Below are positions 51,130 through 64,000 of a stretch of DNA of 64,000 bases, in pieces (the first letter of the stretch is position 1; each line of letters starts with the position of its first letter). The notes below the pieces were generated by a model, which did not search any database, was not told the origin of the DNA, and worked only from the letters and a program-made list of their open reading frames with translations. The position numbers and the translations under genes are program-made. This DNA comes from an uncultured Planctomycetaceae bacterium (GTDB lineage: Bacteria; Planctomycetota; Planctomycetia; Isosphaerales; Isosphaeraceae). The stretch is taken from the NCBI GenBank assembly GCA_963833985.1, contig CAWIAD010000002.1:3616001-3680000 (forward strand). The letters are read 5' to 3'.

Positions 51130-51157
51130 GGTGATCCCGTAATACCTCCGACGATCC

Positions 51158-51332
51158 AAGGAGCCTTCACCGGGCTCTCTCCATATACTTCGTCGGTGTC
51201 AGGCGGTGTGCGTGTCGGCTGATCCCCAGGCTGGGTGGCGCTGTCCCTGCCGATTTAAGGAGCCTTCACCGGGCTCTCTCCATATACTTCGTCGGTGTCA
51301 GGCGGTGTGCGTGTCGGCTGATCCCCAGGCTG
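51158..51332. repeat. 76-bp direct repeat (51158-51233 and 51257-51332), each containing a minus-strand TGACACCGACGA
   Basis: Identical AAGGAGCC...CCCCAGGCTG, offset 99 bp. Confidence 0.95.
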
Positions 51333-52365
51333 AATGGCGGCGCTCTCTATATAATAATACGAGGGGCGAAGGCTACGGACGCCTCCCGCACCCGTCAGGG
51401 GCATTTGTAAGTCGCATGAGACTTACGACTTGGCGACATAATCTCAATCGAGAACGAAGGTTCCGCCAACCCCCATCCTGGCTCACGTCCCCCGTCTGGT
51501 CTCATTTCCGCCGCTCCTTCGCAGCCAACTGACACCGCCGATTGCGTCGTTGATAACCAACGACCAACCGGGAGTCAGTCATGCCAACGCAAGAACAACT
51601 CAGAGAGCAGATCACCGCACAAGTCATCGCCGCCTTGGAGTCCGGTGACGTGCCGCCGTGGAGAAGACCTTGGCGACTGGGCAAGAATGCTGGTTCCCCC
51701 GCCAACGTGGTCTCCAAGCGAGGCTACCGAGGGCTCAACCTGCTGCTCTTGGACGTGGCGGCGACTCGCCACAACCTGTCCAGTCGTTGGTGGGGAACTT
51801 TCAATCAGTGGCGGCAACTGGGCGGCAGGGTGATGTCTCGTCCAAGCCACGTTCCTCCTGGCAAATGGGGAACTCAGATCGTCTTCTGGGCTCCCGTCGT
51901 CAAGACAGTCGAAAACGAGAACGGCGAGGAGGAAGAAGACCGGTTCTTCTTCATGCGGACTTACTGCGTCTTCAATAGCGAGCAAGTTGATGGGCTTGAC
52001 CACCTCAAAGCCGGTCAACCTGACACCGGTAAGAACCACGTCGTCGATTTCCAGCCCGCCGAAGAGGCATTGGAAGCCAGTCTCTCTGGGATGCAACTGA
52101 GCCTTCGTTTTGGCGGGGGCAAGGCGTTCTACAACCCTGCCCAGGACTACGTGCAGATCCCACCAAAGGCGACCTTCGAGTCACTGAAAGAGTACTACGG
52201 AACCGTCTTCCACGAACTCGTTCATGCCACGGAACACGAGTCTCGGCTGAACTGGAGTCGGAAGGACAAAGACAAGACCTATGCCTTCGGGGAACTCATC
52301 GCCGAGTTGGGCGGCGTCTTCGTCTGTCGTGAGTTGGGAGTCCCGGCGAGCGATGACCTGACTAA

Positions 52366-53875
52366 TTCTACTGTATCTCTACGTTCGTAGTTGGTTCTTC
52401 AAAGGGGGTAAGAGTTTGCGTGAGTAATGCTGGAAGAATCGGGCGAGCTCGTTGCGTTCCAACCAACGTGTGGTGCACCGGGAGAGCTTCTCGGGGCTGT
52501 TGACGTTGAGACGTTCCTCGATGATCCCTGCGATCAGTTGCCGCAACCGCGGTGACGTCAATGCCGGTGTCTGTATTTTTTCCCCGCCGCGTCTCCTGAT
52601 TCAGGAACCACGCGGCCACGAGCGACAAGGTTTGATGGTGATGCCAGGCGATCCAGTTCCGCACCTGGTAATCGGCCAGGCCCGCCTCCCCTTTGCCCCG
52701 CTCCAGGCACTCCTCGATCCGATGCGCCAGTTTGGCCACCCGGCCAAATTCGATCAACGGAGTTTCGGCTTTACTATTTGATAAATAATAATCATGTTTA
52801 ACAGTTCCATCGGCCTGTTGCTCACGCGTGATGAAGAGGACCTCCTCGAAACCTGCACGATTGCCCGGTCCTCGAGATTGGACGCGCCGCTTGATCGCGT
52901 CGACCACCAAAGGTCCCTTCTCGCCATCACGGACGTCGAGCCTCGTCCACGCCGATTCCGGCAGGGCCGCACGCCAATGATCCACACGCATGAAAGGAGC
53001 CTTGGGGGGTTGACCCCGCCCCCCATATTCCGGTGGCGGTGCCTCCAGATCGCGGATCGTCGTGTTCGACGGAACCGCCAACAGATACTGCTCCCCCCGC
53101 TCCCTCAACGCCTGGCGAAAACTCGCGGGACGGCCCATTTCATCGTCCCCCGCCACCCACGCGTGTGGCAGCAACCCACCTTGCTCATCCAGCATCGCCA
53201 GGGCCAATTGATGGCGCGTCTGGAACTTGATGGACTTGGGGACGCCAGCCTTGTTCCGGCGGTCGCGATCCTTGGCCCATTCCTTGGGCAAGTAAAGCCT
53301 TACATTGGTAATCGTATGCTCTTTTCTAGACGCATAAGCCATGTAGACGCCAACCTGACAGTTCTCAACCTTCCCCAGCCGGCCGCACCACTGCCGCGCG
53401 ACGCCCACCGACATAGTCCCTTTCTTGGGGAAGCCCGAAGGGTCGAAGATAATCACCCCATCCTTCTCGCCCAGTTGCTCGCCGACCTGCTGCGCCAGGA
53501 TCGTGAGCAGGGGTTGATGATCCCATGGCACGTGCCCGATGAACTTTTGGATTCCTTGTCGTTCTTGATCGTGGAGATAAGCGATTCCCTCGCCGGTCTT
53601 GTGCTCAAGCTTCGACAGCAGACCGGTAACGTACTCGGTTGCATGTCGATGTTGTTCAGGTTCGCTCAGGGTCGCAGCGAACGGCTCGATGAAGACGTCC
53701 AACCGTTCCAGCAGACCATCGATCAAGTCAGGCGACACCTGCGATTGTGCCAGCATGTCAGCCAACCGTGCTTCGTATCGTCGATCCATGACGCCCTCGC
53801 TTCCTTGTAACATCCTTGACGGAAGCGAATATCAGAAAAAACCTTACAGTTCGTCAACCCCAGGATACAGTAGAA
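52366..53875 (-). mobile_element. IS701-family insertion sequence
   Basis: 12-bp IR TTCTACTGTATC/GATACAGTAGAA; target duplication CTAA (52362-65, 56126-29). Confidence 0.92.
52368..53789 (-). CDS. IS701-family DDE transposase
   Basis: DPSGFPKKG..SVGVARQWCGRLGKVENCQVGV, WVAGD, IEECL. Confidence 0.92.
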   Translation of the reverse strand: MDRRYEARLADMLAQSQVSPDLIDGLLERLDVFIEPFAATLSEPEQHRHATEYVTGLLSKLEHKTGEGIAYLHDQERQGIQKFIGHVPWDHQPLLTILAQQVGEQLGEKDGVIIFDPSGFPKKGTMSVGVARQWCGRLGKVENCQVGVYMAYASRKEHTITNVRLYLPKEWAKDRDRRNKAGVPKSIKFQTRHQLALAMLDEQGGLLPHAWVAGDDEMGRPASFRQALRERGEQYLLAVPSNTTIRDLEAPPPEYGGRGQPPKAPFMRVDHWRAALPESAWTRLDVRDGEKGPLVVDAIKRRVQSRGPGNRAGFEEVLFITREQQADGTVKHDYYLSNSKAETPLIEFGRVAKLAHRIEECLERGKGEAGLADYQVRNWIAWHHHQTLSLVAAWFLNQETRRGKNTDTGIDVTAVAATDRRDHRGTSQRQQPREALPVHHTLVGTQRARPILPALLTQTLTPFEEPTTNVEIQ

Positions 53876-56119
53876 CCTACTTTCCGCACATCTCGCCTTG
53901 ACTATCTCCTAATTTCCGTGTGCCGTCTTTCGGCCTGTCAGGCTCAAATCTCGTAGGCTTTGGGTATCCCCAGCAGGCGCAGGATCCTCTTCTGGAGCCG
54001 AGTTAACTCTGTGCTGAACACCTCAAGAGGGCGTTTCCCAGCCTTCAGGGAATGCTCTTGAACGTCCTCGTACAGGTCGATCACTTTTCGAGCCGTCGGG
54101 CGTCGGCAGGCCCGACCTTCGGAATACAGTGGCAGGCTCTCGATTCCCGCTCGTTCCATCGCGCGGCGGAGTTCTCGCTCCAACAGCGCCTCGACCAGCA
54201 ACACGAAGAAGTACACGCAGAGCAAGGCCTGAATCCGACTCACCTCCTTCAGGTACATAGGCGCTACCACGAAGTCAGTCTTCAGGTGCTCGAACCGTCG
54301 TTCGATGGCCGGTTGCTGTTTGTAGGCCAAGAGCAGATCCTGCTCCGTCATCTTCGATTCGTTGCTCACCAGCGGGAAAATGCCATCACAGCGGGCCTCC
54401 TCATCCAGTCGCTCCAACTCAATCCGATGCTTCAACGAGTAACGGAGCTTCTCCTCTCGGACGTACCGCGTGTCCTGTCCAGGCCGGCCGCGTCGCTCCT
54501 GGCGGAACTTTTCGGTGACCTGCTCCTCGATCTCGACCGAGATCCACTCGGTGACCTCACAGTCTCGGAGCAGCTCCTCGACCGCCTCGGCGACCTTGGC
54601 TCGACTGCGGTACCGGGTTCGGGACGAGGCGAGCTTGGCACGCAGTTCGTCCAGTCGTTTCAACGCCTTCTCCAGCCGGGTCAGCCGTACCTCCGCATCC
54701 AACTCGGCCTTGCGTGTGCTGTGATACCAGATCAGCCGGTAACCCTCGGTGGTCTGGCTCGCAGGTTTGCAGATCGAGAAGCGGTCGGTCAACTGTCCCT
54801 TGTCGTCGTACTTGTCGTGGGTCCATCGCCACTGGATCTCTCCCCGGAGTACGGCGCCGCGGAAGGCACCGTCCTCACTGCGAGTTCGCGGCAGCACGCT
54901 GAGGAACCGACCGCCGCGCTGATGCAGATAGGCCATGTTCTCGGTGGTGGCCAGCTTGCAGTCGGCGATGTAGAGAAAGTCTCGGCGTCCGGTCAGTTGA
55001 CAGAGCAACTCCCAGGTCTCCTGGTGAGAGCGGTCGTCGGTGGCGTTGCCGCTCTCGACGCGAAAGTGCACCGGGACGGCACCGTCGCCGGTCACGGTGA
55101 GGATGTAGAGTAGCTGCTTGAGGTCGGGGCGGTGGTCTTTGTTATGACCCCAGGTCACCGCCAACCGCAATTGTCCCCGCAGGGTTCGCTCCGCCTCCGC
55201 CGACTCGTAGTCACCGTGGAAAGTGATGGTGGTCGAGTCGTTGTGTAACTGGTCGAGGCTGACGTCGAATTCGCGTACGGCATGGGCCGCGACCTTCAGG
55301 GCCAACCCCGAGAGATTGGCGTCGAAGAGACGGTCGAGGGCCCGGCCAACTCGATCGTCGTTCATTGCGGCGACTTGGACATCGGACAACCCGAACAGTT
55401 TCGGCTCATGGCGGGCCACCCACTCACCGACACCATAGAGTGGCTCACGCGAGATCAGCAGGTTGCGCAGCAGGACGAGCAAGGCCGTGGCCGTGGGGAC
55501 CCGAGTGCGGCCGTCCTCATGGGGCAGGTGGTCGCAGAGAAACTCGCGAAGGCGGAGCCGACTCAGGAAGTGTTCCAGGATGGGCACGGCGGCAATCCGC
55601 CGCGTGTTGAGCGTGCGCTTGCGTCCCTTCGAGCGTGCCGTCTCGCCGGGTTGGCGCGGTCGTTGAGGTTCGTTCATGCGGATCATCTCCGGAGGGTTTG
55701 CAGCGAGTTGGCCGGTGTCCGCCGCCGGGCCTTCCAGGGCCGTGAGGGGAGCAGGCCGACCGCCGCAGGGCTTGCCGCAATGATGGCGGAGGAGATCGGG
55801 ACGTCAAGGACAAAAAATCTTGTGATTCACTTATGACAATTTGCCTTGACGTAAGTTGTGAGCCGCTCAACTTACGCTCATAGCCCGTGTCACAAGTCGT
55901 CGCGGCGAGAATCGCGGCGCGCGGCTGGACATTGCCAAGTCATAAGACAAGGCGAAGAATGGCTCGAGTTCAGGAACGGTCCGGTTGGCGAACCATCTGA
56001 ACCGAACAAGGTCCCCGTGCCGATCGACTTGTAGATGTTTACCGACCCTGGGGCCGCGTCTGAGAAGATGGCCTCAGGTCGAATTCGGGGAAATCAAAGG
56101 GAGATGTGCGGAAAGTAGG
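53876..56119 (-). mobile_element. IS1634-family insertion sequence
   Basis: 19-bp IR CCTACTTTCCGCACATCTC/GAGATGTGCGGAAAGTAGG; 6-bp duplication GTAGAA (53870-75, 56120-25). Confidence 0.92.
53944..55686 (-). CDS. IS1634-family transposase
   Basis: NDDRVGRALD, HNDST, GHNKDHRPDLKQ, IADCKL, IERRFEHLK. Confidence 0.92.
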   Translation of the reverse strand: MIRMNEPQRPRQPGETARSKGRKRTLNTRRIAAVPILEHFLSRLRLREFLCDHLPHEDGRTRVPTATALLVLLRNLLISREPLYGVGEWVARHEPKLFGLSDVQVAAMNDDRVGRALDRLFDANLSGLALKVAAHAVREFDVSLDQLHNDSTTITFHGDYESAEAERTLRGQLRLAVTWGHNKDHRPDLKQLLYILTVTGDGAVPVHFRVESGNATDDRSHQETWELLCQLTGRRDFLYIADCKLATTENMAYLHQRGGRFLSVLPRTRSEDGAFRGAVLRGEIQWRWTHDKYDDKGQLTDRFSICKPASQTTEGYRLIWYHSTRKAELDAEVRLTRLEKALKRLDELRAKLASSRTRYRSRAKVAEAVEELLRDCEVTEWISVEIEEQVTEKFRQERRGRPGQDTRYVREEKLRYSLKHRIELERLDEEARCDGIFPLVSNESKMTEQDLLLAYKQQPAIERRFEHLKTDFVVAPMYLKEVSRIQALLCVYFFVLLVEALLERELRRAMERAGIESLPLYSEGRACRRPTARKVIDLYEDVQEHSLKAGKRPLEVFSTELTRLQKRILRLLGIPKAYEI

Positions 56120-56297
56120 GTAGAACTAACCACATTGCCTATCTCGGGAACTGGCTCCAAGCCATGAAGAACGATTCCCGGTTCATCATCATGGCGAGTG
56201 CTCAGGCGAGCAAAGCCGCCTCTTACATCCTGTCGTTCAGCAGGAAAGAGGAGGAAGTCCCTCAAGAAGACGGTGAACTGGTCACTGCCTGACCTCT

Positions 56298-56319
56298 TGC
56301 GGGAACGGAGTCCCGCAAC
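56298..56319 (+). terminator. Hairpin after ardC
   Basis: TTGCGGGA-ACGGAG-TCCCGCAA; no U-tract, directly followed by a motif copy. Confidence 0.4.
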
Positions 56320-56355
56320 CTGACACCGCCGAACAAACTGTCCCGATCGAGGACA

Positions 56356-56517
56356 ACCGGAACAGGGACGCCCGAGACGATCAAGTGGCGGCTCGGCTTT
56401 AGCGATCTACACGCAGCGTTGAACCGCTCCCTGAACTGCGCAGCAGCGGGCGGAATTCTGCTGCCATTGTGAACGCTCGAAGCCGCACTGGATCAACGAC
56501 GGCGTTCCCTGTCCGGT
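56356..56517 (+). ncRNA. Candidate structured non-coding RNA or ssDNA element
   Basis: Nested inverted repeats forming a long branched stem between two motif copies; no credible ORF. Confidence 0.5.
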
Positions 56518-56579
56518 CTCTTCTGAACCGACACCGCCGAGAGGGGTGCGAGAGCACCACACCCATAAGGGAGACGACC

Positions 56580-56798
56580 GTGAGCATTGGTGAAATGACC
56601 GCCGAACCTCAACTCGGCGACACGGCGTTTTATCGTGCTGCCATCCCACGAGCCAGGAAGCAACGAGTGACCGTATCGGGGTTGTTCCTGAATGGGCGCA
56701 TCAAAGTCACCTTCCCGGATGGGAGTTGGAAAAGCCTCCCACGTCATTATCACAAGCGGATTCAGAACGAGCGATTCGGGCTTGTAAGGATCGAATAG
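56580..56798 (+). CDS. Small basic hypothetical protein
   Basis: GTG start with GGGAG RBS, 51 nt after a motif copy. Confidence 0.65.
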   Translation: MSIGEMTAEPQLGDTAFYRAAIPRARKQRVTVSGLFLNGRIKVTFPDGSWKSLPRHYHKRIQNERFGLVRIE

Positions 56799-56883
56799 CA
56801 GTCACAACCGCGACTTCAGCGTCACCGTTTGACACCGCCGAAAGGGATGTGAGATCAACACACACCTAGCAACGGAGATCAAC

Positions 56884-57489
56884 ATGACAGCACTGGGTGA
56901 AATGACCCTAGAAGATGCCGCAAAGCAAGCGGCAGGAAATTGGCAGCGTTTCGAGTGCTTTGTGTGGTTCAGGGACGAGGAGGTTGATGACCCCGACAAC
57001 TGGGTGATCATCTACACGCACAACAGAGACAGCGGTCTCCTTGACAAGAGCAACGCCGAAGCCATCGCCGAAGCGATGGAGCCGTTCACGAACGGTCACG
57101 ACCCGGATGTGGTGGTGGAATCCCATAACCACTGGGCAGTCGGGCACGTGGATGGCTTCAGCATCAGGGTTTACCGGGACGGTGAGATCACCGGAGCCTT
57201 CCGCACCTACCACGACCTGATGGAGCAAGTGGACGGCTACCCAATCCTGGATGAAGAGGATTATTGGGAACGGGAACTTGATGCGACCCTCGAAAACATC
57301 AGTGACGCCGCATGGCGTGTGAAGCACGAATACACCTTGCCCGAGGGCTGGGAAGGAGACGTTTACTCCTGGCTGAGCGACAACCGCTCGGGAGCCGTCG
57401 AGAACCGTGACGACCAAGGGGGCTATCCCGAAGAGGATGACCTTCGGGCGGCGTTCGCTGCCCTGGGCTATGAGCGGATCGAAGAGTAG
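56884..57489 (+). CDS. Acidic hypothetical protein
   Basis: NRDSGLLDKSN, HWAVGHV, YPILDEEDY; GGAG RBS. Confidence 0.85.
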   Translation: MTALGEMTLEDAAKQAAGNWQRFECFVWFRDEEVDDPDNWVIIYTHNRDSGLLDKSNAEAIAEAMEPFTNGHDPDVVVESHNHWAVGHVDGFSIRVYRDGEITGAFRTYHDLMEQVDGYPILDEEDYWERELDATLENISDAAWRVKHEYTLPEGWEGDVYSWLSDNRSGAVENRDDQGGYPEEDDLRAAFAALGYERIEE

Positions 57490-57547
57490 GACCGGGTGAC
57501 ACCGCCGAGGAGGGTGTGATGAACGCCCTCTTCGATGGAGTGAGACC

Positions 57548-57754
57548 ATGAACGAAAGCCCCGATGAGTGGCTCGAACGGCTCTTCGAGTTCGAGTACTG
57601 CCCAGAGTGCGGCGGCGATGCCGACGACCATGAAGTGAGCGTGGTCTTGGGGAATTACTTTGCGTGGTGCAAGCGGTCTCCCTTCGCCGACACCGCCGAG
57701 GAGGGTGTGATGAACACCCTCCCCGATGGAGCACGTGGGGCATCTGTGCCATGA
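57548..57754 (+). CDS. Small acidic Zn-ribbon-like protein
   Basis: CPECGGD..H..WC; reads through the next motif copy. Confidence 0.65.
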   Translation: MNESPDEWLERLFEFEYCPECGGDADDHEVSVVLGNYFAWCKRSPFADTAEEGVMNTLPDGARGASVP

Positions 57755-57825
57755 GTGACCGAGGCGGGGCTGGCATCTTCAGCCCCGCTCACCTGACACC
57801 GGATAACAACCTCGGAGAGCAGTCA

Positions 57826-58191
57826 ATGGCACTGATTGAGCGAAACGGCAGGGTCTATGCCCGCAAACTGTGGATCTTCCTCGGCGCGAGCGAATGGGGC
57901 AACGACCTCATGAGGCTGGTCGCGAGGGAAGCCTTCGCCAATGACGCCAGCTTGGATGCCGTCCAGGTACACGAGCACGGTGGCTGGTATCTCACCTTCC
58001 TGCGAGGCGGCACGATCGTCGGCATCGCCAACGATCAGGCGCATCTCGATGACAGAGCCAATCGGCGGGAGAGATTCGCCGCCCCTGACACCGACGAGAA
58101 GGGCATGGATGCCATGCCGCAGAGCACACGCATGGGGAATACGAATGAGCAACTCAGGAATCACACCACGGTTCAGCCTTCTCCAACTTGA
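57826..58191 (+). CDS. Hypothetical protein
   Basis: ATG 57826 with GGAG; reads through motif 58086. Confidence 0.65.
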   Translation: MALIERNGRVYARKLWIFLGASEWGNDLMRLVAREAFANDASLDAVQVHEHGGWYLTFLRGGTIVGIANDQAHLDDRANRRERFAAPDTDEKGMDAMPQSTRMGNTNEQLRNHTTVQPSPT

Positions 58192-58543
58192 CGAGACCAA
58201 GTTCTGGGCGGATGAGGTTGTCCGTAGTGCCAAGCAGGTTTTCGGTCTTTACGTCTTTGACCAGAACAGGAGGGTCCATTGTTGCGAGTTCACACCCAGC
58301 TACGAGTGCGTCTTCGTCGGTTCCGCTATCGGGAACACCGACCTCGACGAAACCGCCAACGAACGGCTCGACACCGCCATCAGAGAGGGCGATCTGGAAA
58401 CCGAGCAGGTGAAGTACATCCACTGCCGCGAGATCGACGCCCTTCCGAAGATCGGCGATCAAGACCTCAAGGTGGGCGTCTCCGACCTCAACATCGATGA
58501 CGAAGAGGAAGCCCTGGAATACGTCCGACAGCGGGCTCTTTGA
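58145..58543 (+). CDS. Acidic hypothetical protein
   Basis: VHCCEFTPSYE ORF, 59 nt after a motif copy. Confidence 0.75.
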   Translation: MSNSGITPRFSLLQLDETKFWADEVVRSAKQVFGLYVFDQNRRVHCCEFTPSYECVFVGSAIGNTDLDETANERLDTAIREGDLETEQVKYIHCREIDALPKIGDQDLKVGVSDLNIDDEEEALEYVRQRAL

Positions 58544-58594
58544 AGTGACACCGCCGACAAGTGCGACAGGCAACCCCCAACTCAGGAGACCCAC

Positions 58595-59488
58595 ATGGCA
58601 TTCACCGCTGATACCGGGGACCACAAAGTCACCCGCAGCGACATTTACCTCGTAGACCCCACGGCGCTGATCGTGGACTGGCGGAAGAACCTCAGCCGCA
58701 ACGGCGAGGAGCCACCCGTTGACGAACCTCTCATGGATCTGGCTCGCGACATGATGCCCAAGAGGGGGCAGGGCGACACGGAGGAGGGCACAAGCGGGCA
58801 ACTCAATCCGATCCTCGTTCGACCCCTCAGCGACCGTCGCCTGGAGGTGGTAGGCGGCTTCCGCCGCATGCGGGCAGCCCTCTGGCTCATCGAGTCGGGC
58901 ACGTGCCCCGACTTCAAGATCAAGTACGTCGTCAGCCGCCTGTCCGACGCCGAGGCGGCACTGATCAACCTCAGCGAGAACATCCAACGGGAAGATCCCA
59001 AGCCCATCCAGCTTGCCCACGCGGTACGGGCACTGACCGAGGATTATGGACTTACTCTCAAGCAGGTTGCAGGACGACTGAAACGCTCCGAGGCTTGGCT
59101 GTCGAATTTGCTCAACCTCGTGATGCTTCCCACTTCGATCCAGGAGAGCGTGGCGAACGGGAAGACTCCCGTCTCTGCCGCCCTTGAACTGACCAAGTTC
59201 CCGACCGACAAGCAGGTCGAGACCTTCAACGACCTGGCAGCCAGTGGCGAGAAAGTCACCGCTGCCAAGGTGCGGAAGAGGCGGCAGGAGACGCACGAGG
59301 CGACCGGTGAGGGCGGTCCCGTGCCCCGCACCCTCAAGCAACTGAGGGCATTCCTCGAAGGAAAGACCGGTCCCGCCGACCCCGGTCACAAGCTCGCCTC
59401 CTACCTGCTCGACTACCTGGCGGGCAAGAAGAGCGATGACAACCTGGGCAAGTACTGGGACAAGGCGTTCCCCGAAGGCAACGGCTGA
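58595..59488 (+). CDS. ParB/Srx-like protein with HTH
   Basis: GQLNPILVR, GGFRRMRAA, ENIQRED, HTH LKQVAGRLKRSEAWLS. Confidence 0.88.
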   Translation: MAFTADTGDHKVTRSDIYLVDPTALIVDWRKNLSRNGEEPPVDEPLMDLARDMMPKRGQGDTEEGTSGQLNPILVRPLSDRRLEVVGGFRRMRAALWLIESGTCPDFKIKYVVSRLSDAEAALINLSENIQREDPKPIQLAHAVRALTEDYGLTLKQVAGRLKRSEAWLSNLLNLVMLPTSIQESVANGKTPVSAALELTKFPTDKQVETFNDLAASGEKVTAAKVRKRRQETHEATGEGGPVPRTLKQLRAFLEGKTGPADPGHKLASYLLDYLAGKKSDDNLGKYWDKAFPEGNG

Positions 59489-59543
59489 CACCAACGTAGG
59501 GGGCGTGACCAACGCCCCCATCAAAAACCAAAGGGATCGCACG

Positions 59544-60479
59544 ATGACCTACCCCGCACTGACCCTGATCAACCCGATCCCGGACGAGTCCGCCCAGGTC
59601 GCCGAGGAGTCCACGCTCACGGCGCTGGAAGAGCGGCAGAATCTCCTGGCTCATCACGTGCGGCTCGTCGCCCGAGGTCTCTCAGTAGGGCTCTTCGTTT
59701 ATGGACCGCATGGAGGGCTTGGTAAGAGCCGCACAGTGCTGCGGACACTCGCTGATGAAGGCGTGTCGCCGATTCTCGTGAACTCGCACATCACGCCTCT
59801 GGCTCTCTACAGCACGCTCTACTTCAACCGCTCGGGGAAAGTCGTCTTCTTCGACGACGTGGATTCAATCTTTGGCTCTATGTCGCACCTTGGCTTGCTT
59901 CGATCGGCTCTCTGGGGCGATCCCAGGATCGTCACATACGGGTCAAGCCAATTGGATGATCTGCTGGGCTCGTTCATCTTCGAGTCCCGTCTCATCTTTT
60001 CGGGCAACGTGATCCCCAAGCGGAACGACGCCTTCAAGGCAGTGCTCTCGCGGTGCGACATCTTTCAACTCGATGCGACCCAGGAAGAGGTCATTGAACT
60101 CATGAGGTCGGTCTCAAGGCAGGGCTATGAGACGCTGACGCCCGATGACTGCCTCGAAGTCGTAACGTTCATCGAGGAGAACGGTGATGACCGCGCGATC
60201 TCGATAAGGCTCTTGGAGCCGAGCTTCCGCAAGGTGATCTACGCACAATCGGAGGGCTTGGACTGGCGACCGCTTGTCCTGACCCAACTCCGCACTCTCG
60301 GACGCAAAGAGGATACGTCCCGCCGCGTGGACGCCAAGGCTCGGGAGATTCGCACACTTCACCAAGCCATCGAGCGGTTCCCTGACTCTGTGGCTGAGCA
60401 GCAGATGTTCTGGAGCAAAGTAACGAGCAAAAGCCGGGCTTCCTTTTTCCGGCTCATCGCCAAGCACCGTCCACGTTGA
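59544..60479 (+). CDS. P-loop ATPase with C-terminal HTH-like segment
   Basis: GPHGGLGKS, VFFDDVD, SRASFFRL. Confidence 0.8.
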   Translation: MTYPALTLINPIPDESAQVAEESTLTALEERQNLLAHHVRLVARGLSVGLFVYGPHGGLGKSRTVLRTLADEGVSPILVNSHITPLALYSTLYFNRSGKVVFFDDVDSIFGSMSHLGLLRSALWGDPRIVTYGSSQLDDLLGSFIFESRLIFSGNVIPKRNDAFKAVLSRCDIFQLDATQEEVIELMRSVSRQGYETLTPDDCLEVVTFIEENGDDRAISIRLLEPSFRKVIYAQSEGLDWRPLVLTQLRTLGRKEDTSRRVDAKAREIRTLHQAIERFPDSVAEQQMFWSKVTSKSRASFFRLIAKHRPR

Positions 60480-60528
60480 CGATGAGCAGTGGTCCACAGA
60501 GACGGCAAGTGAAAGACTCGCGTCCCGC

Positions 60529-60768
60529 TTACAAGCTGACTTGCACAGCGAGACGGACAATCACGAGAGTCATGATGACGGTATAAGCAATGCAGAGGGT
60601 GGCTCCCGTCAAGGCGAGGTTACGAGACCAGCCAGATGCTCCCTTCGTCATCGAGACAGCCCCAATGGCGATCATCGGGGACACTGGCAATAGCCAGAAG
60701 CAGGCTACGCTCAGGATGGCAAACAGCTTCGCCATTCGCCCCCGCATCACTCCAGCAACAGTGTTCAT
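60529..60768 (-). CDS. Small membrane protein, antisense to the array
   Basis: Two hydrophobic helices; GGAG before the ATG. Confidence 0.55.
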   Translation of the reverse strand: MNTVAGVMRGRMAKLFAILSVACFWLLPVSPMIAIGAVSMTKGASGWSRNLALTGATLCIAYTVIMTLVIVRLAVQVSL

Positions 60769-60969
60769 GACGCAAGCTCCTCGTGTCGCATCAGCAACCC
60801 TTCTAATCTTGGCACCGTCTACGACATCTGTCAATTCACTGCCTGCCAGTCTTCATTTGCCCAGGAGGAGCCCCTCAACTCCCTGGCTCAACAGTGCGAC
60901 TGCTGAGCCTGAACTGACACCGCCGATCCTCACGTTGAGAACGACAACCACATCAACGGGAGGATCAAC

Positions 60970-61410
60970 ATGATCACGAGATGCGAGCGGCGCGGACAAG
61001 TTGAGATAGGGATCGTTGACCATGAGGGACGGTCCTACGCCGCCTTCGGTTCATCCGTCAACGATCACAACGTAACGGGTTACACCCGGAACCGCAACGG
61101 GTGCATCAGCCTGACTCGCTGGGAGGGCAGCACAATGCTTGCCAGCCGGTCGAATATCGTACGTGAGTATCACGACGGCTCCATCGCCATCATGTTCCGC
61201 CTGACCAACCTCCGGTTCCTCGTCGGCTACGCCCTGGGCGACGACGGCATGTTGTTCAGGGGTGAACTCCTGACCGATTGCGACGGGGAGCGTGCCCGCC
61301 ACGAGTCGGCTGCCCTGGCTCAGTACTGGTCCGAGATCGATGCCGAGGATGAATCTGACCCCTGGCACGGGGAGCCCGACGAGACTGATGGCGATTACCT
61401 GGACAGATAG
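60970..61410 (+). CDS. Hypothetical protein with acidic tail
   Basis: GGGAGG RBS, 55 nt after a motif copy. Confidence 0.75.
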   Translation: MITRCERRGQVEIGIVDHEGRSYAAFGSSVNDHNVTGYTRNRNGCISLTRWEGSTMLASRSNIVREYHDGSIAIMFRLTNLRFLVGYALGDDGMLFRGELLTDCDGERARHESAALAQYWSEIDAEDESDPWHGEPDETDGDYLDR

Positions 61411-61501
61411 CAGTTCACGGGTGGGGCGGTAGTAGTGCCGTCTCACTCGACACCGCCGATGGCGGCATCAACTACTACTTGTCTTAAACGGGAGCGACTT
61501 C

Positions 61502-61810
61502 ATGAGCGTGAATGAGACCAAGAAGCCCTTGTTCGACCTTGGACAGATCGTCGCGACTCCCGGAGCCTTGGACGCCCTGCGAGACGCCAGGCAGACACTC
61601 GCCGAGTTCTTGACCCGTCACGTGAGCGGCGACTGGGGCGACCTCGATCAAGAGGATAGCAACCTCAATGACGCCGCCGTGATCGACGGCAGCCGCATCC
61701 TGAGCGCCTATCAGACACGCAAAGGGGAGCGGATTTGGATCATCACCGAAGCGGCTGATGACCAGGGGCACCGCTCTTCAAGCACGCTGCTTTTACCTCG
61801 GGAGTATTGA
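61502..61810 (+). CDS. Conserved plasmid/ICE-associated small protein
   Basis: LGQIVATPGA, RHVSGDWGD, SRILSAY, IWIITE, TLLLPREY. Confidence 0.85.
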   Translation: MSVNETKKPLFDLGQIVATPGALDALRDARQTLAEFLTRHVSGDWGDLDQEDSNLNDAAVIDGSRILSAYQTRKGERIWIITEAADDQGHRSSSTLLLPREY

Positions 61811-61914
61811 ACTCATCCCATTCCATCCCTTCTCGCCGGGCTGACACCGGTGAGACGGGTGTGAGATCAATCCCAGCCGTACCCAAGCACCAAGAGGGAC
61901 GATCACACCTGCGG

Positions 61915-62382
61915 CTAAACAGGCTCAGTGGGGTTCCTCTTGCTCCACCGGTGGCAGATCCAGCCAGCAACCAAAGCCGGGATCAATTGGAGCATCGTCA
62001 AATAAGCCATAGCTATTCCAAACCTACAGATGTAATCAGCAGCAGACTGCTGAGAAGTAATGGCTCTCACCACTGGACCAAGGGTGCGGCTCAAGTGCTG
62101 GTCGAGGGAGATGGGAGCCTGGAAACAGACGGCAACATAAACCAGGAGACCAATCCAGCCAACGACCTCAATCCCCGCGAGAAAAGAGAGCGGCTTGTCC
62201 CTTCGTTTTCGCCGTCCAAACAAGACCAGCAGCCCGATGACCAGGACGATCTGAAACGGCAATCCGCCGAAGACAAGGGGATAGAGGACCAGATCAGGCA
62301 AGCCCCGGATCGCCAGACAATCCACGGCGACGATGGCGACGATCACCATGATCTCAGCGATCGAGATCCGAGGGGGTCTCAC
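61915..62382 (-). CDS. Planctomycete-type membrane protein, antisense to the array
   Basis: GTG 62382 with GGGAGG; RPPRISIAEIM N-terminus. Confidence 0.7.
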   Translation of the reverse strand: MRPPRISIAEIMVIVAIVAVDCLAIRGLPDLVLYPLVFGGLPFQIVLVIGLLVLFGRRKRRDKPLSFLAGIEVVGWIGLLVYVAVCFQAPISLDQHLSRTLGPVVRAITSQQSAADYICRFGIAMAYLTMLQLIPALVAGWICHRWSKRNPTEPV

Positions 62383-62512
62383 GGCAATCCCTCCCTTTCG
62401 TCCATCCGGCACGCTTTCGACCAACACATCGTAACCCGCACGGGCACCTCCTGCACCCGACACCGCCGAGACGAATGTGAAATCAACGCCCTCAAACGTG
62501 AAAGGAAGATGT

Positions 62513-62764
62513 ATGACCGACCCAACCGAGGACATCCGGCGTCAGATGCTCGCCGAGATCAACGCCGCCCCCGGCTCCAGGGAGTATCTGGAGCACAAGC
62601 ACGGTCAGGTCTGGGATACCCAGCAATTGTCTGATGACTTCGAGGTGCTGGGGTTCGCCGCCCCGCTCGTCGTCGTGAAAAGGAAGAGCGACGGGCAGAA
62701 GGGGAGCCTCTGCTTCCAGGGCTCTCCCCGGTTCTACTTCGGGTTTGAGGCGCACAAGCCGTGA
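62513..62764 (+). CDS. Small hypothetical protein
   Basis: WDTQQLSDDFEVLGFAAPLVVV..GSLCFQGSPRFYF. Confidence 0.8.
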   Translation: MTDPTEDIRRQMLAEINAAPGSREYLEHKHGQVWDTQQLSDDFEVLGFAAPLVVVKRKSDGQKGSLCFQGSPRFYFGFEAHKP

Positions 62765-62815
62765 CACCGCCGAAGGGGGCGTTGAGAACGACGCCCCTTT
62801 CCCGGAGGAAGACCG

Positions 62816-63037
62816 ATGGCAGTGGCACTCCTGACAACCAGCGCAGTCGAGTCGATCCTGCGTGACGCAGTGGACAAAGGCTGTTACGTGGAACACAGCA
62901 AGTCTGATGGGACAGCCAAAGCGTTCCACAGTGGTGACTTGGTGTTCCAGTCCATCCAGAAGGGTAAAGACGGACCCTGGATCTGCCGGTTCGTCAACAC
63001 GGAACATATCACCTGGACCAGCACGACCGAAGACTGA
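62816..63037 (+). CDS. Small hypothetical protein
   Basis: GGAGG RBS, 54 nt after a motif copy; stop lies inside the next copy. Confidence 0.7.
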   Translation: MAVALLTTSAVESILRDAVDKGCYVEHSKSDGTAKAFHSGDLVFQSIQKGKDGPWICRFVNTEHITWTSTTED

Positions 63038-63139
63038 CACCGACGACAAGGGCGGGAAGGGACGCCTGCCCCAATCAATTCCCAGAAGGGGTCGTCCACG
63101 CAATGTTTCGCGCCTATTGGCTCTCTCGGAGATCCTGAC

Positions 63140-63874
63140 ATGCCCGAAAACCCCTCCGATGACATGACTCACAATGCAAAGCCGAAATCATCCGAGGCTC
63201 AACTCGTCTCCAGGATTACCCGCCTGGTCAAGAAGGAGGGCTTGGACTACGAGGGCTGGCGGTATGTAAGCAAGAGGGTGCGGCGGCTCTGTGACCTGCG
63301 ACCCGAGAAGAAAGGGCGTCGGCTGCCCCGAATCTTGACCACCGAGGAGTTCAGGAGGTTCTATCAGATCGTGGACCGTGCCCAGGACGTTCAGCACTGC
63401 CTGATGCTCAGGCTCTTGTTCTTCACGGCAGTAAGGGTCAGTGAACTCTGCAACATCGGAGTTTCCGAAGTTGATATCGAGGCGTGCAAGATCAGGATCA
63501 ACCAGGGCAAGGGCTCCAAGGATCGCTACGTCCTCTTCGGCAAGTCCTTCGCCACGGCGCTGCGAACGCATATAGCAGCCCACCCGAACAACCGCTGGCT
63601 CTTCCAGACCCAAAGGCACGGCAAGTTCAGCACGAGGAGGGTGCAGCAGATCGTCTCCAAGTACGCCGAGGAGGCGGGAGTCAAAGCTACCCCTCACACC
63701 TTCCGGCACCAGGCGATTACCTGGTTGACTCGCCATTCAGGGCTTGCTGACGCTGAGCTTCAACTGATCACCGGTCATGCCCGCAGAGAGACCCTTGCTG
63801 TCTACCAGCACATGGCTCTCGATGGTGATTTGGAGGCAAAGTATCAGTCGTCCATGAAAGAGATCGAACTTTGA
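63140..63874 (+). CDS. Compact tyrosine recombinase/integrase
   Basis: R (AVRVSE), K (GKGSK), HxxR (PHTFRH), H (TGH), Y (AVYQH). Confidence 0.93.
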   Translation: MPENPSDDMTHNAKPKSSEAQLVSRITRLVKKEGLDYEGWRYVSKRVRRLCDLRPEKKGRRLPRILTTEEFRRFYQIVDRAQDVQHCLMLRLLFFTAVRVSELCNIGVSEVDIEACKIRINQGKGSKDRYVLFGKSFATALRTHIAAHPNNRWLFQTQRHGKFSTRRVQQIVSKYAEEAGVKATPHTFRHQAITWLTRHSGLADAELQLITGHARRETLAVYQHMALDGDLEAKYQSSMKEIEL

Positions 63875-64000
63875 CGATGTACAAAAGTGGGACGGCGAAA
63901 CGCTCGATCGGCTGACACCGCCTAGCGGGCTCCGGAGAACGACCCTCAGCACCCCTCACCGGGAAACTCAGCCGTGTATTTCCTGACCCTAACGCCAGAC

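Follow-up and report, generated by a model that had tools for sequence, protein, structure and literature searches.

A conserved rod-shaped element behind ardC in planctomycete islands and its possible role as a homodimerising small RNA

The ardC array and its island

The stretch of DNA analysed here (the window, 64,000 nucleotides of a planctomycete genome) lies within a low-GC island of about 132 kb (about 57% versus 65% GC) that is bounded by a 54-bp direct repeat from tRNA-Ala. The window contains an array in which most genes are headed by the motif (C/T)GACACC, listed in 19 copies; its features are given in Table 1. The ardC gene of this array, whose last part ends at 56292, is uninterrupted in relatives. 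A preliminary description of the locus had noted an extensively folded, non-coding unit filling the slot between two motif copies, at 56321 and 56529. Both motifs proved to be genuine members of the 19-copy array, and the unit was found to be an optional cassette behind ardC. The absence of a gene from the slot is borne out by the lengths of 36 homologous rods, which fall in all three frames (18, 7 and 11).

Table 1. Features of the ardC array and of the rod slot (positions in the window)
Feature	Position	Strand	Basis or remark
ardC, split by insertion sequences DDE_5 (52368-53813) and DUF4277/DDE (53944-55686)	51581..56292	+	Pfam ArdcN, MPTase-PolyVal; C-terminal match
Terminator-like hairpin behind the ardC stop codon	56297..56318	+	sequence; similar hairpins behind ardC in relatives
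Array header TGACACC-N11-TGT	56321..56341	+	promoter-like (inferred); GACACC starts 34 nt before the rod
Small hairpin/inverted repeat TGTCC...GGACA over the would-be -10 region	56339..56355	+	compensatory changes (helix 1)
Unbranched bulged rod, 162 nt	56356..56517	+	fold, conservation, covariation; likely small-RNA body
Apical loop: purines AA and perfect palindrome CTGCGCAG (56436-56443)	56434..56443	+	predicted kissing loop
Pyrimidine tail CTCTTCT, possible 3' end	56518..56524	+	tail composition in 36 homologues
Header motif of the next gene slot (ORF from 56580)	56529..56535	+	motif array
201-aa marker protein, no Pfam family	56884..57489	+	marker used to collect homologues
Rest of array: ParB-like gene, P-loop ATPase, small genes, XerC/D-like recombinase	58595..63874	+	Pfam, array comparison

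Homologous loci were gathered by anchoring on ArdC and the 201-aa marker protein, followed by searches with covariance models. The marker protein is 55-80% conserved across Planctomycetia and was found in 39 of 401 class genomes, which together with the best 80 of 281 metagenome loci make up the marker-anchored sample; related loci come from Planctomycetaceae, Isosphaeraceae and Thermoguttaceae. The homologue search behind ardC that had been suggested earlier placed the rod in 33 of 71 distinct ardC-to-marker intervals (two of the 33 are refetched loci). It is absent from the other 38, in which the marker gene mostly lies about 85-180 nt behind ardC, and in one locus (L167) the rod occupies a later slot. 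The marker protein has no match in Pfam, NCBIfam or Foldseek searches, no usable match in the Atlas and none in the plasmid collection, and its structural model is of moderate quality (pLDDT 71). We regard it as a candidate anti-defence protein. It is also carried by 14 viral loci (contigs), where no rod is present, and a second, divergent copy of its gene (67% identity) lies in the same genome at C2:1303000-1312000, behind an insertion sequence and without ardC or rod.

The islands integrate at tRNA or tmRNA genes, the G222 island doing so at tmRNA. No relaxase or mating-pair gene was recognised in Pfam scans of 19, 58 and 74 island proteins, which did find defence and metabolic cargo, and none was seen among 99 and 77 proteins around the arrays of relatives, where one FtsK/SpoIIIE gene and one primase-polymerase gene occur in G397. 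In the genome studied here, the TrwC and main TrwB matches are on another contig. In three near-complete rod-bearing genomes (G049, G204 and G222), for which BLAST was the sole means of ORF comparison, TrwC had no match; TrwB matches were confined to G222, at a distance from the island, with none in G049 and G204.

Other features of these islands were recorded alongside. The island studied here (C2:3561370-3693948) carries DISARM-like helicase and methylase genes, Mrr and a CsrA paralogue. At its tRNA end, beside a ClpX-like gene, no integrase was recognised; G072 has one there, and the island may be immobile. Two 89-nt direct repeats, 96% alike, lie at 51152-51339 of the window, each with the header motif on the - strand; they face away from ardC and precede a 147-aa gene conserved in 4 of 12 islands. 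A tyrosine-recombinase-like protein of 570-730 aa with a C-terminal helix-turn-helix and no Pfam match is encoded at several island ends (L312:12152-13861, L043:5475-7211, L261:7947-9650) and possibly represents an undescribed integrase family. In G397 (L270:16062-18509), a primase-polymerase/helicase gene lies directly upstream of ardC, which hints that some of the islands replicate autonomously.

Structure and conservation of the rod

Folded as RNA, the rod reaches -78.1 kcal/mol (z -4.60), and folded as single-stranded DNA it reaches -41.9 (z -3.71); in both cases it beats 200 of 200 dinucleotide shuffles. The extensive folding claimed in the preliminary description thus withstood the z-score check proposed there, and all four of the arm pairs it listed are present. 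The outer arms (56356-72 with 56501-17) contain one bulge on each side, and the arms at 56379-93 and 56481-94 contain one mismatch and one bulge; the CGCAG/CTGCG arms are exact and the GCAGCGG/CTGCTGC arms include one G.T. The Y shape drawn from these arms did not hold. The minimum-energy structure is a single unbranched rod, with both strands folding alike, and a fold constrained to contain both inner hairpins loses 7.0 kcal/mol in the RNA calculation and 1.6 in the DNA calculation. It is also the pairing of the unbranched rod that covaries in homologues.

The homologue set comprises 39 distinct full-length rods across Planctomycetia, in 16 clusters at 75% identity, and excludes identical duplicates, cut copies and two degenerate copies (L014/L071, L123). 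In a 22-row alignment of diverse members, itself fitted to the structure, both sides change in 57 of 61 pairs, and none of 500 shuffles reaches any of the measures. Sliding the pairing register lowers the paired fraction from 86% to 34-42%. Only 17 outer pairs were recovered by RNAalifold on a plain MAFFT alignment; support for the inner helices comes from the model-fitted alignment and from arm alignments made sequence by sequence, the latter giving 51-62 Watson-Crick pairs in each of 36 members. Header-led slots elsewhere (L082:1268-1401, L076:1318-1400, L123:2781-2953) contain shorter rods that share the base helix and tail; these may have arisen by deletion or may represent a second kind of cargo RNA.

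The rod is single-copy in the 10.2-Mb genome by both blastn and covariance model, and every genome with a match has one copy. Strong blastn matches were obtained in 8 of 121 family genomes, the genome studied here included and one being a half copy. Covariance model R2 placed the rod in at least 7 of 151 class genomes and at least 2 of 151 phylum genomes, at one place each, these counts being lower bounds because of the stricter filters applied. A MITE had been raised as an alternative at the outset; a non-autonomous repeat of this or another kind, acquired by a single ancestral insertion, would suit the inverted ends and the occurrence in only about half of the islands. With one copy per matched genome, no target duplication in the flanks, a fixed phase to the header and internal covariation that persists down to about 43% identity, this explanation is hardly credible.

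The comparison with Rfam proposed in the preliminary description matched no family: its covariance models gave nothing at the gathering score in the window (a single chance match, E 7.6) and nothing at E <= 1 in 7 loci of distant homologues. With the rod DNA as query, a collection of 72,556 plasmids returned only two short matches at chance level and a phage collection only short chance matches, and a rod-derived pattern gave 0 stretches in IMG/VR. No description of the rod family was found in the literature, where supplementary tables of RNA motifs or Frpo candidates could include it. We conclude that the rod is a real, conserved structured element that is absent from the RNA catalogue searched (Rfam).

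Header, tail and palindromic tip

The header motif is present in 36 of the 39 homologues and lies 31-35 nt ahead of the rod in 34. Because this is the distance from a -35 box to a start site, we liken the header to a -35 box, and GACACC with its preceding T resembles TTGACA. The would-be -10 region gave no match to TATAAT. The letters of the header vary by island (GACACC, GGCACC, GATACT and others), tracking each island's own repeat, and the GACACC..GT spacing is the same at 12 of the 19 slots of the window array. CUP and LDR repeats of IncN/IncW plasmids are non-coding and tied to ardC-type establishment genes, and the array header resembles them in layout. Across the array (window 51530-63920, on to about 65860; L032), the header was seen to be bipartite, GACACC-N12-GT, and usually overlapped by a small inverted repeat, and its TGA is often the stop codon of the preceding gene. 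Header letters that differ among related islands (GGCACC, GATACT, AACACC) look as if fitted to an island-specific regulator.

In 36 homologues, the 8 nt behind the rod are C or T at 255 of 284 positions, and 51% are T. This tail is a mixed C/T tract in which a terminator scan gave no call. A terminator-like call on the - strand (56365-56338) was discarded, as homologues have no conserved tail there. The sense-strand pyrimidine tail could also belong to a cis-acting RNA attenuator or insulator, in which rod and tail would stop read-through from ardC until opened. The precedent is EGeRS1 of plasmid pLS20, which, according to PMC8708921, is structured, precedes establishment operons including ardC and blocks read-through. 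As described there, EGeRS1 is like the rod a conserved non-coding sequence tied to ardC-type establishment genes, but it is 420-751 bp long, branched, repeated and upstream of ardC, whereas the rod is 162 nt long, unbranched, single, downstream and itself headed by a repeat. We consider an attenuator improbable, since a terminator-like hairpin already follows ardC, the next gene is separately headed, and the palindromic tip would be left unexplained.

The tip is the most conserved part of the rod. A perfect 8-nt palindrome occurs in 44 of 44 tips (five partial or degenerate copies being restored for this count only) versus 6 of 5314 other windows, and its versions are CTGGCCAG (19 tips), CTGCGCAG (17), GACCGGTC (5) and CCGGCCGG (3). 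On a tree built without the tip, 9 tip changes are needed (minimum possible 3); counting well-supported branches only, the two main versions still require at least 4-5. No non-palindromic or single-change intermediates were found among the 44 tips. The swap between GGCC and GCGC concerns two central bases that are unable to pair inside a hairpin; given this and the lack of any half-way form, pairing between two molecules is the simplest cause. The predicted loop-loop duplex amounts to about -14 kcal/mol and that of single-change intermediates to about -3.5.

The same palindrome, together with the like folding of both strands, might instead mark a double-stranded or cruciform DNA site whose centre is bound or cut by the XerC/D-like recombinase or a RuvB-like ATPase, and of the 12 arrays compared, 8 do have XerC/D-like genes and 4 have a RuvB-like gene. 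A sequence-specific protein should, however, fix the centre or tolerate non-palindromes rather than swap one palindrome for another, the arms keep many bulges, unlike resolution sites, and both genes occur independently of the rod slot. Such a site has accordingly little probability.

In retroviral and retrotransposon dimerisation loops, among them the HIV-1 DIS and those of Ty1, a purine-flanked, self-complementary apical loop changes in sequence yet stays palindromic. The rod has a self-complementary loop kept through sequence change, and its loop is predicted to be exposed and purine-flanked: the central four tip bases are mostly unpaired in 36 of 39 predicted + strand RNA folds, and two purines precede the palindrome in 33 of 35 cases (G then T in the other 2). 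It shares the purine-flanked palindromic loop with these systems and differs from them in being a small stand-alone bacterial unit rather than a packaged genome, in its 8-nt palindrome and in that its dimer is a prediction. An RNA copy of the rod would likely homodimerise via its palindromic tip, as a kissing loop.

Small RNA or single-stranded DNA signal

Two functions had been offered for the unit in the preliminary description, a small RNA expressed as cargo and an ssi/Frpo single-strand signal. The former has come out as the better supported of the two, on the strength of the header, the pyrimidine tail, the palindromic tip and the failure to find transfer genes. As a single-strand DNA signal (an ssi/sso priming site or a Frpo-type promoter), the rod would fold in the incoming strand of an island mobilised in trans and recruit RNA polymerase or primase, priming the second strand or driving transcription of the rightward genes. 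Against the RNA reading, genes such as ardC and a ParB-like gene typify conjugative leading regions, in which Frpo rods occupy comparable positions (PMC9849209, PMC11541004). In particular, Frpo2 in F likewise has an anti-restriction gene on one side and an operon containing a ParB-like gene on the other (PMC9849209). The Frpo/ssi elements of F and ColIb-P9 (PMC9849209, PMC11541004, PMC12672017) are also long imperfect rods of similar size, placed intergenically with anti-restriction, ParB-like and small genes around them. A long stem-loop is likewise predicted in DNA (z -3.7). The palindromic tip, moreover, could also persist by template-switch mutation or through use at the DNA level.

No sequence match to Frpo/ssi emerged from the plasmid search, and two F-type leading regions (L281, L282) gave no hit with model R2. 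The function of sso in an ICE depends on structure more than on sequence (PMC4595007), and there are new ssDNA promoter classes without homology to Frpo (PMC12672017). The rod nevertheless differs from Frpo/ssi in having no A/T-rich stem, in being single and optional, in its palindromic tip and in lying on an island in which no relaxase was found, and Frpo/ssi elements are defined by an oriT-linked leading region (PMC9849209, PMC11541004, PMC12672017).

We compared the two strands using SRP and 6S RNA genes of the same class as controls, with a strand-neutral arm alignment. Raw counts of isolated G.T and A.C on the + strand were 38:33 in the rod versus 30:10 in SRP and 75:28 in 6S, and the overall rod count was 97:144; the raw rod counts are significantly below those of SRP and 6S. 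Frpo leans towards A.C on its gene-sense strand (7:22, from 10 closely related copies in 2 clusters), the direction also taken by the overall rod count. A lean of the raw wobble counts towards DNA did not survive clustering and composition controls. De-replicated isolated counts in the rod were 23.0 to 14.5, a ratio of 1.59 versus 0.56 in arm shuffles, an enrichment not smaller than that of the controls (observed and shuffled ratios of 5.37 and 2.60 for SRP and of 2.08 and 0.98 for 6S). By energy, on the other hand, it is the + strand that gives the more stable fold in just 12 of 36 rods (5 of 16 clusters), versus 27 of 27 for SRP and 23 of 28 for 6S. In a scan for -35/-10 reconstitution, no rod arm rose above shuffles, and F's own Frpo also reached only 6-7 of 12. 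The window contains a TAGCGA, which we take to be CS-6-like, without conservation in homologues.

The wobble and strand-energy tests conflict, and we therefore weighed header phase, tail, optional presence, tip and the absence of recognised transfer genes instead. The missing sense-strand energy advantage and the overall excess of A.C over G.T would suit a single-strand signal. No relaxase or mating-pair gene that would point to a single-stranded phase was recognised, however, and no relaxase, coupling protein or oriT is tied to the islands. Of the 71 intervals, 38 lack the rod, and the search of rod-less loci turned up no other family member; the rod exists as one copy whereas Frpo heads several operons, and a lone incoming strand would offer the self-complementary tip no partner. 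We regard a single-strand DNA signal as unlikely, if the least improbable of the alternatives.

Optional presence like that of a cargo gene, including the other slot in L167, instead favours an RNA. Two known RNAs of 100-200 nt, 6S RNA (RF00013) and small SRP RNA (RF00169), are rods closed by a terminal helix, as is the element described here, which differs in matching neither at E <= 10 and in its weaker sense-strand bias; separate 6S-like and SRP genes of the host lie at other places in the genome. Homo-oligomeric RNAs, several of them plasmid- or prophage-borne and using kissing loops or palindromic pairing, include ARRPOF, ROOL, GOLLD, OLE and HYER introns (PMC12990946). As reported there, these are multi-domain RNAs of 255-830 nt, in contrast to the rod, a single rod of 160 nt with no Rfam match.

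The best explanation, to which we assign a probability of roughly 0.5, is that the slot encodes a small cargo RNA, an optional cassette behind ardC, which homodimerises by a kissing loop and may act as a decoy during establishment. The predicted product is a rod-shaped RNA of about 165 nt. The repeated header would serve as its promoter, with a start at about the first base of the rod (near 56356) and an end in the tail; a start at that base would make the product of the slot an RNA. It would be made together with ArdC and the products of the other array genes, on arrival of the island or on induction. The loop of one or two purines and the 8-nt palindrome would then pair with its counterpart in another copy of the RNA, in the way of a retroviral dimerisation loop. 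The last step is the weakest, and we put it forward tentatively, as an idea with the odds against it: the dimer, a long interrupted duplex, may be a decoy that soaks up a host duplex-binding protein during establishment. Speculatively, its target could be a defence sensor, a nuclease or, in the manner of 6S, RNA polymerase, and it would work alongside ArdC.

A wider and more doubtful proposal is that defence islands of planctomycetes are equipped with an RNA for anti-defence or establishment, one dimerising by a retrovirus-style palindromic loop, the alternative palindromes being identity codes against cross-pairing between islands. If the product is an RNA, it would be a small and simple natural homodimerising bacterial RNA in an anti-restriction array, where protein cargo is what is usually described. 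If the rod is instead a DNA signal, it would represent an ssi/Frpo class lacking homology to the known members, and would imply that these planctomycete islands, free of transfer genes, move as single strands. Either outcome informs how an uncharacterised family of islands establishes itself.
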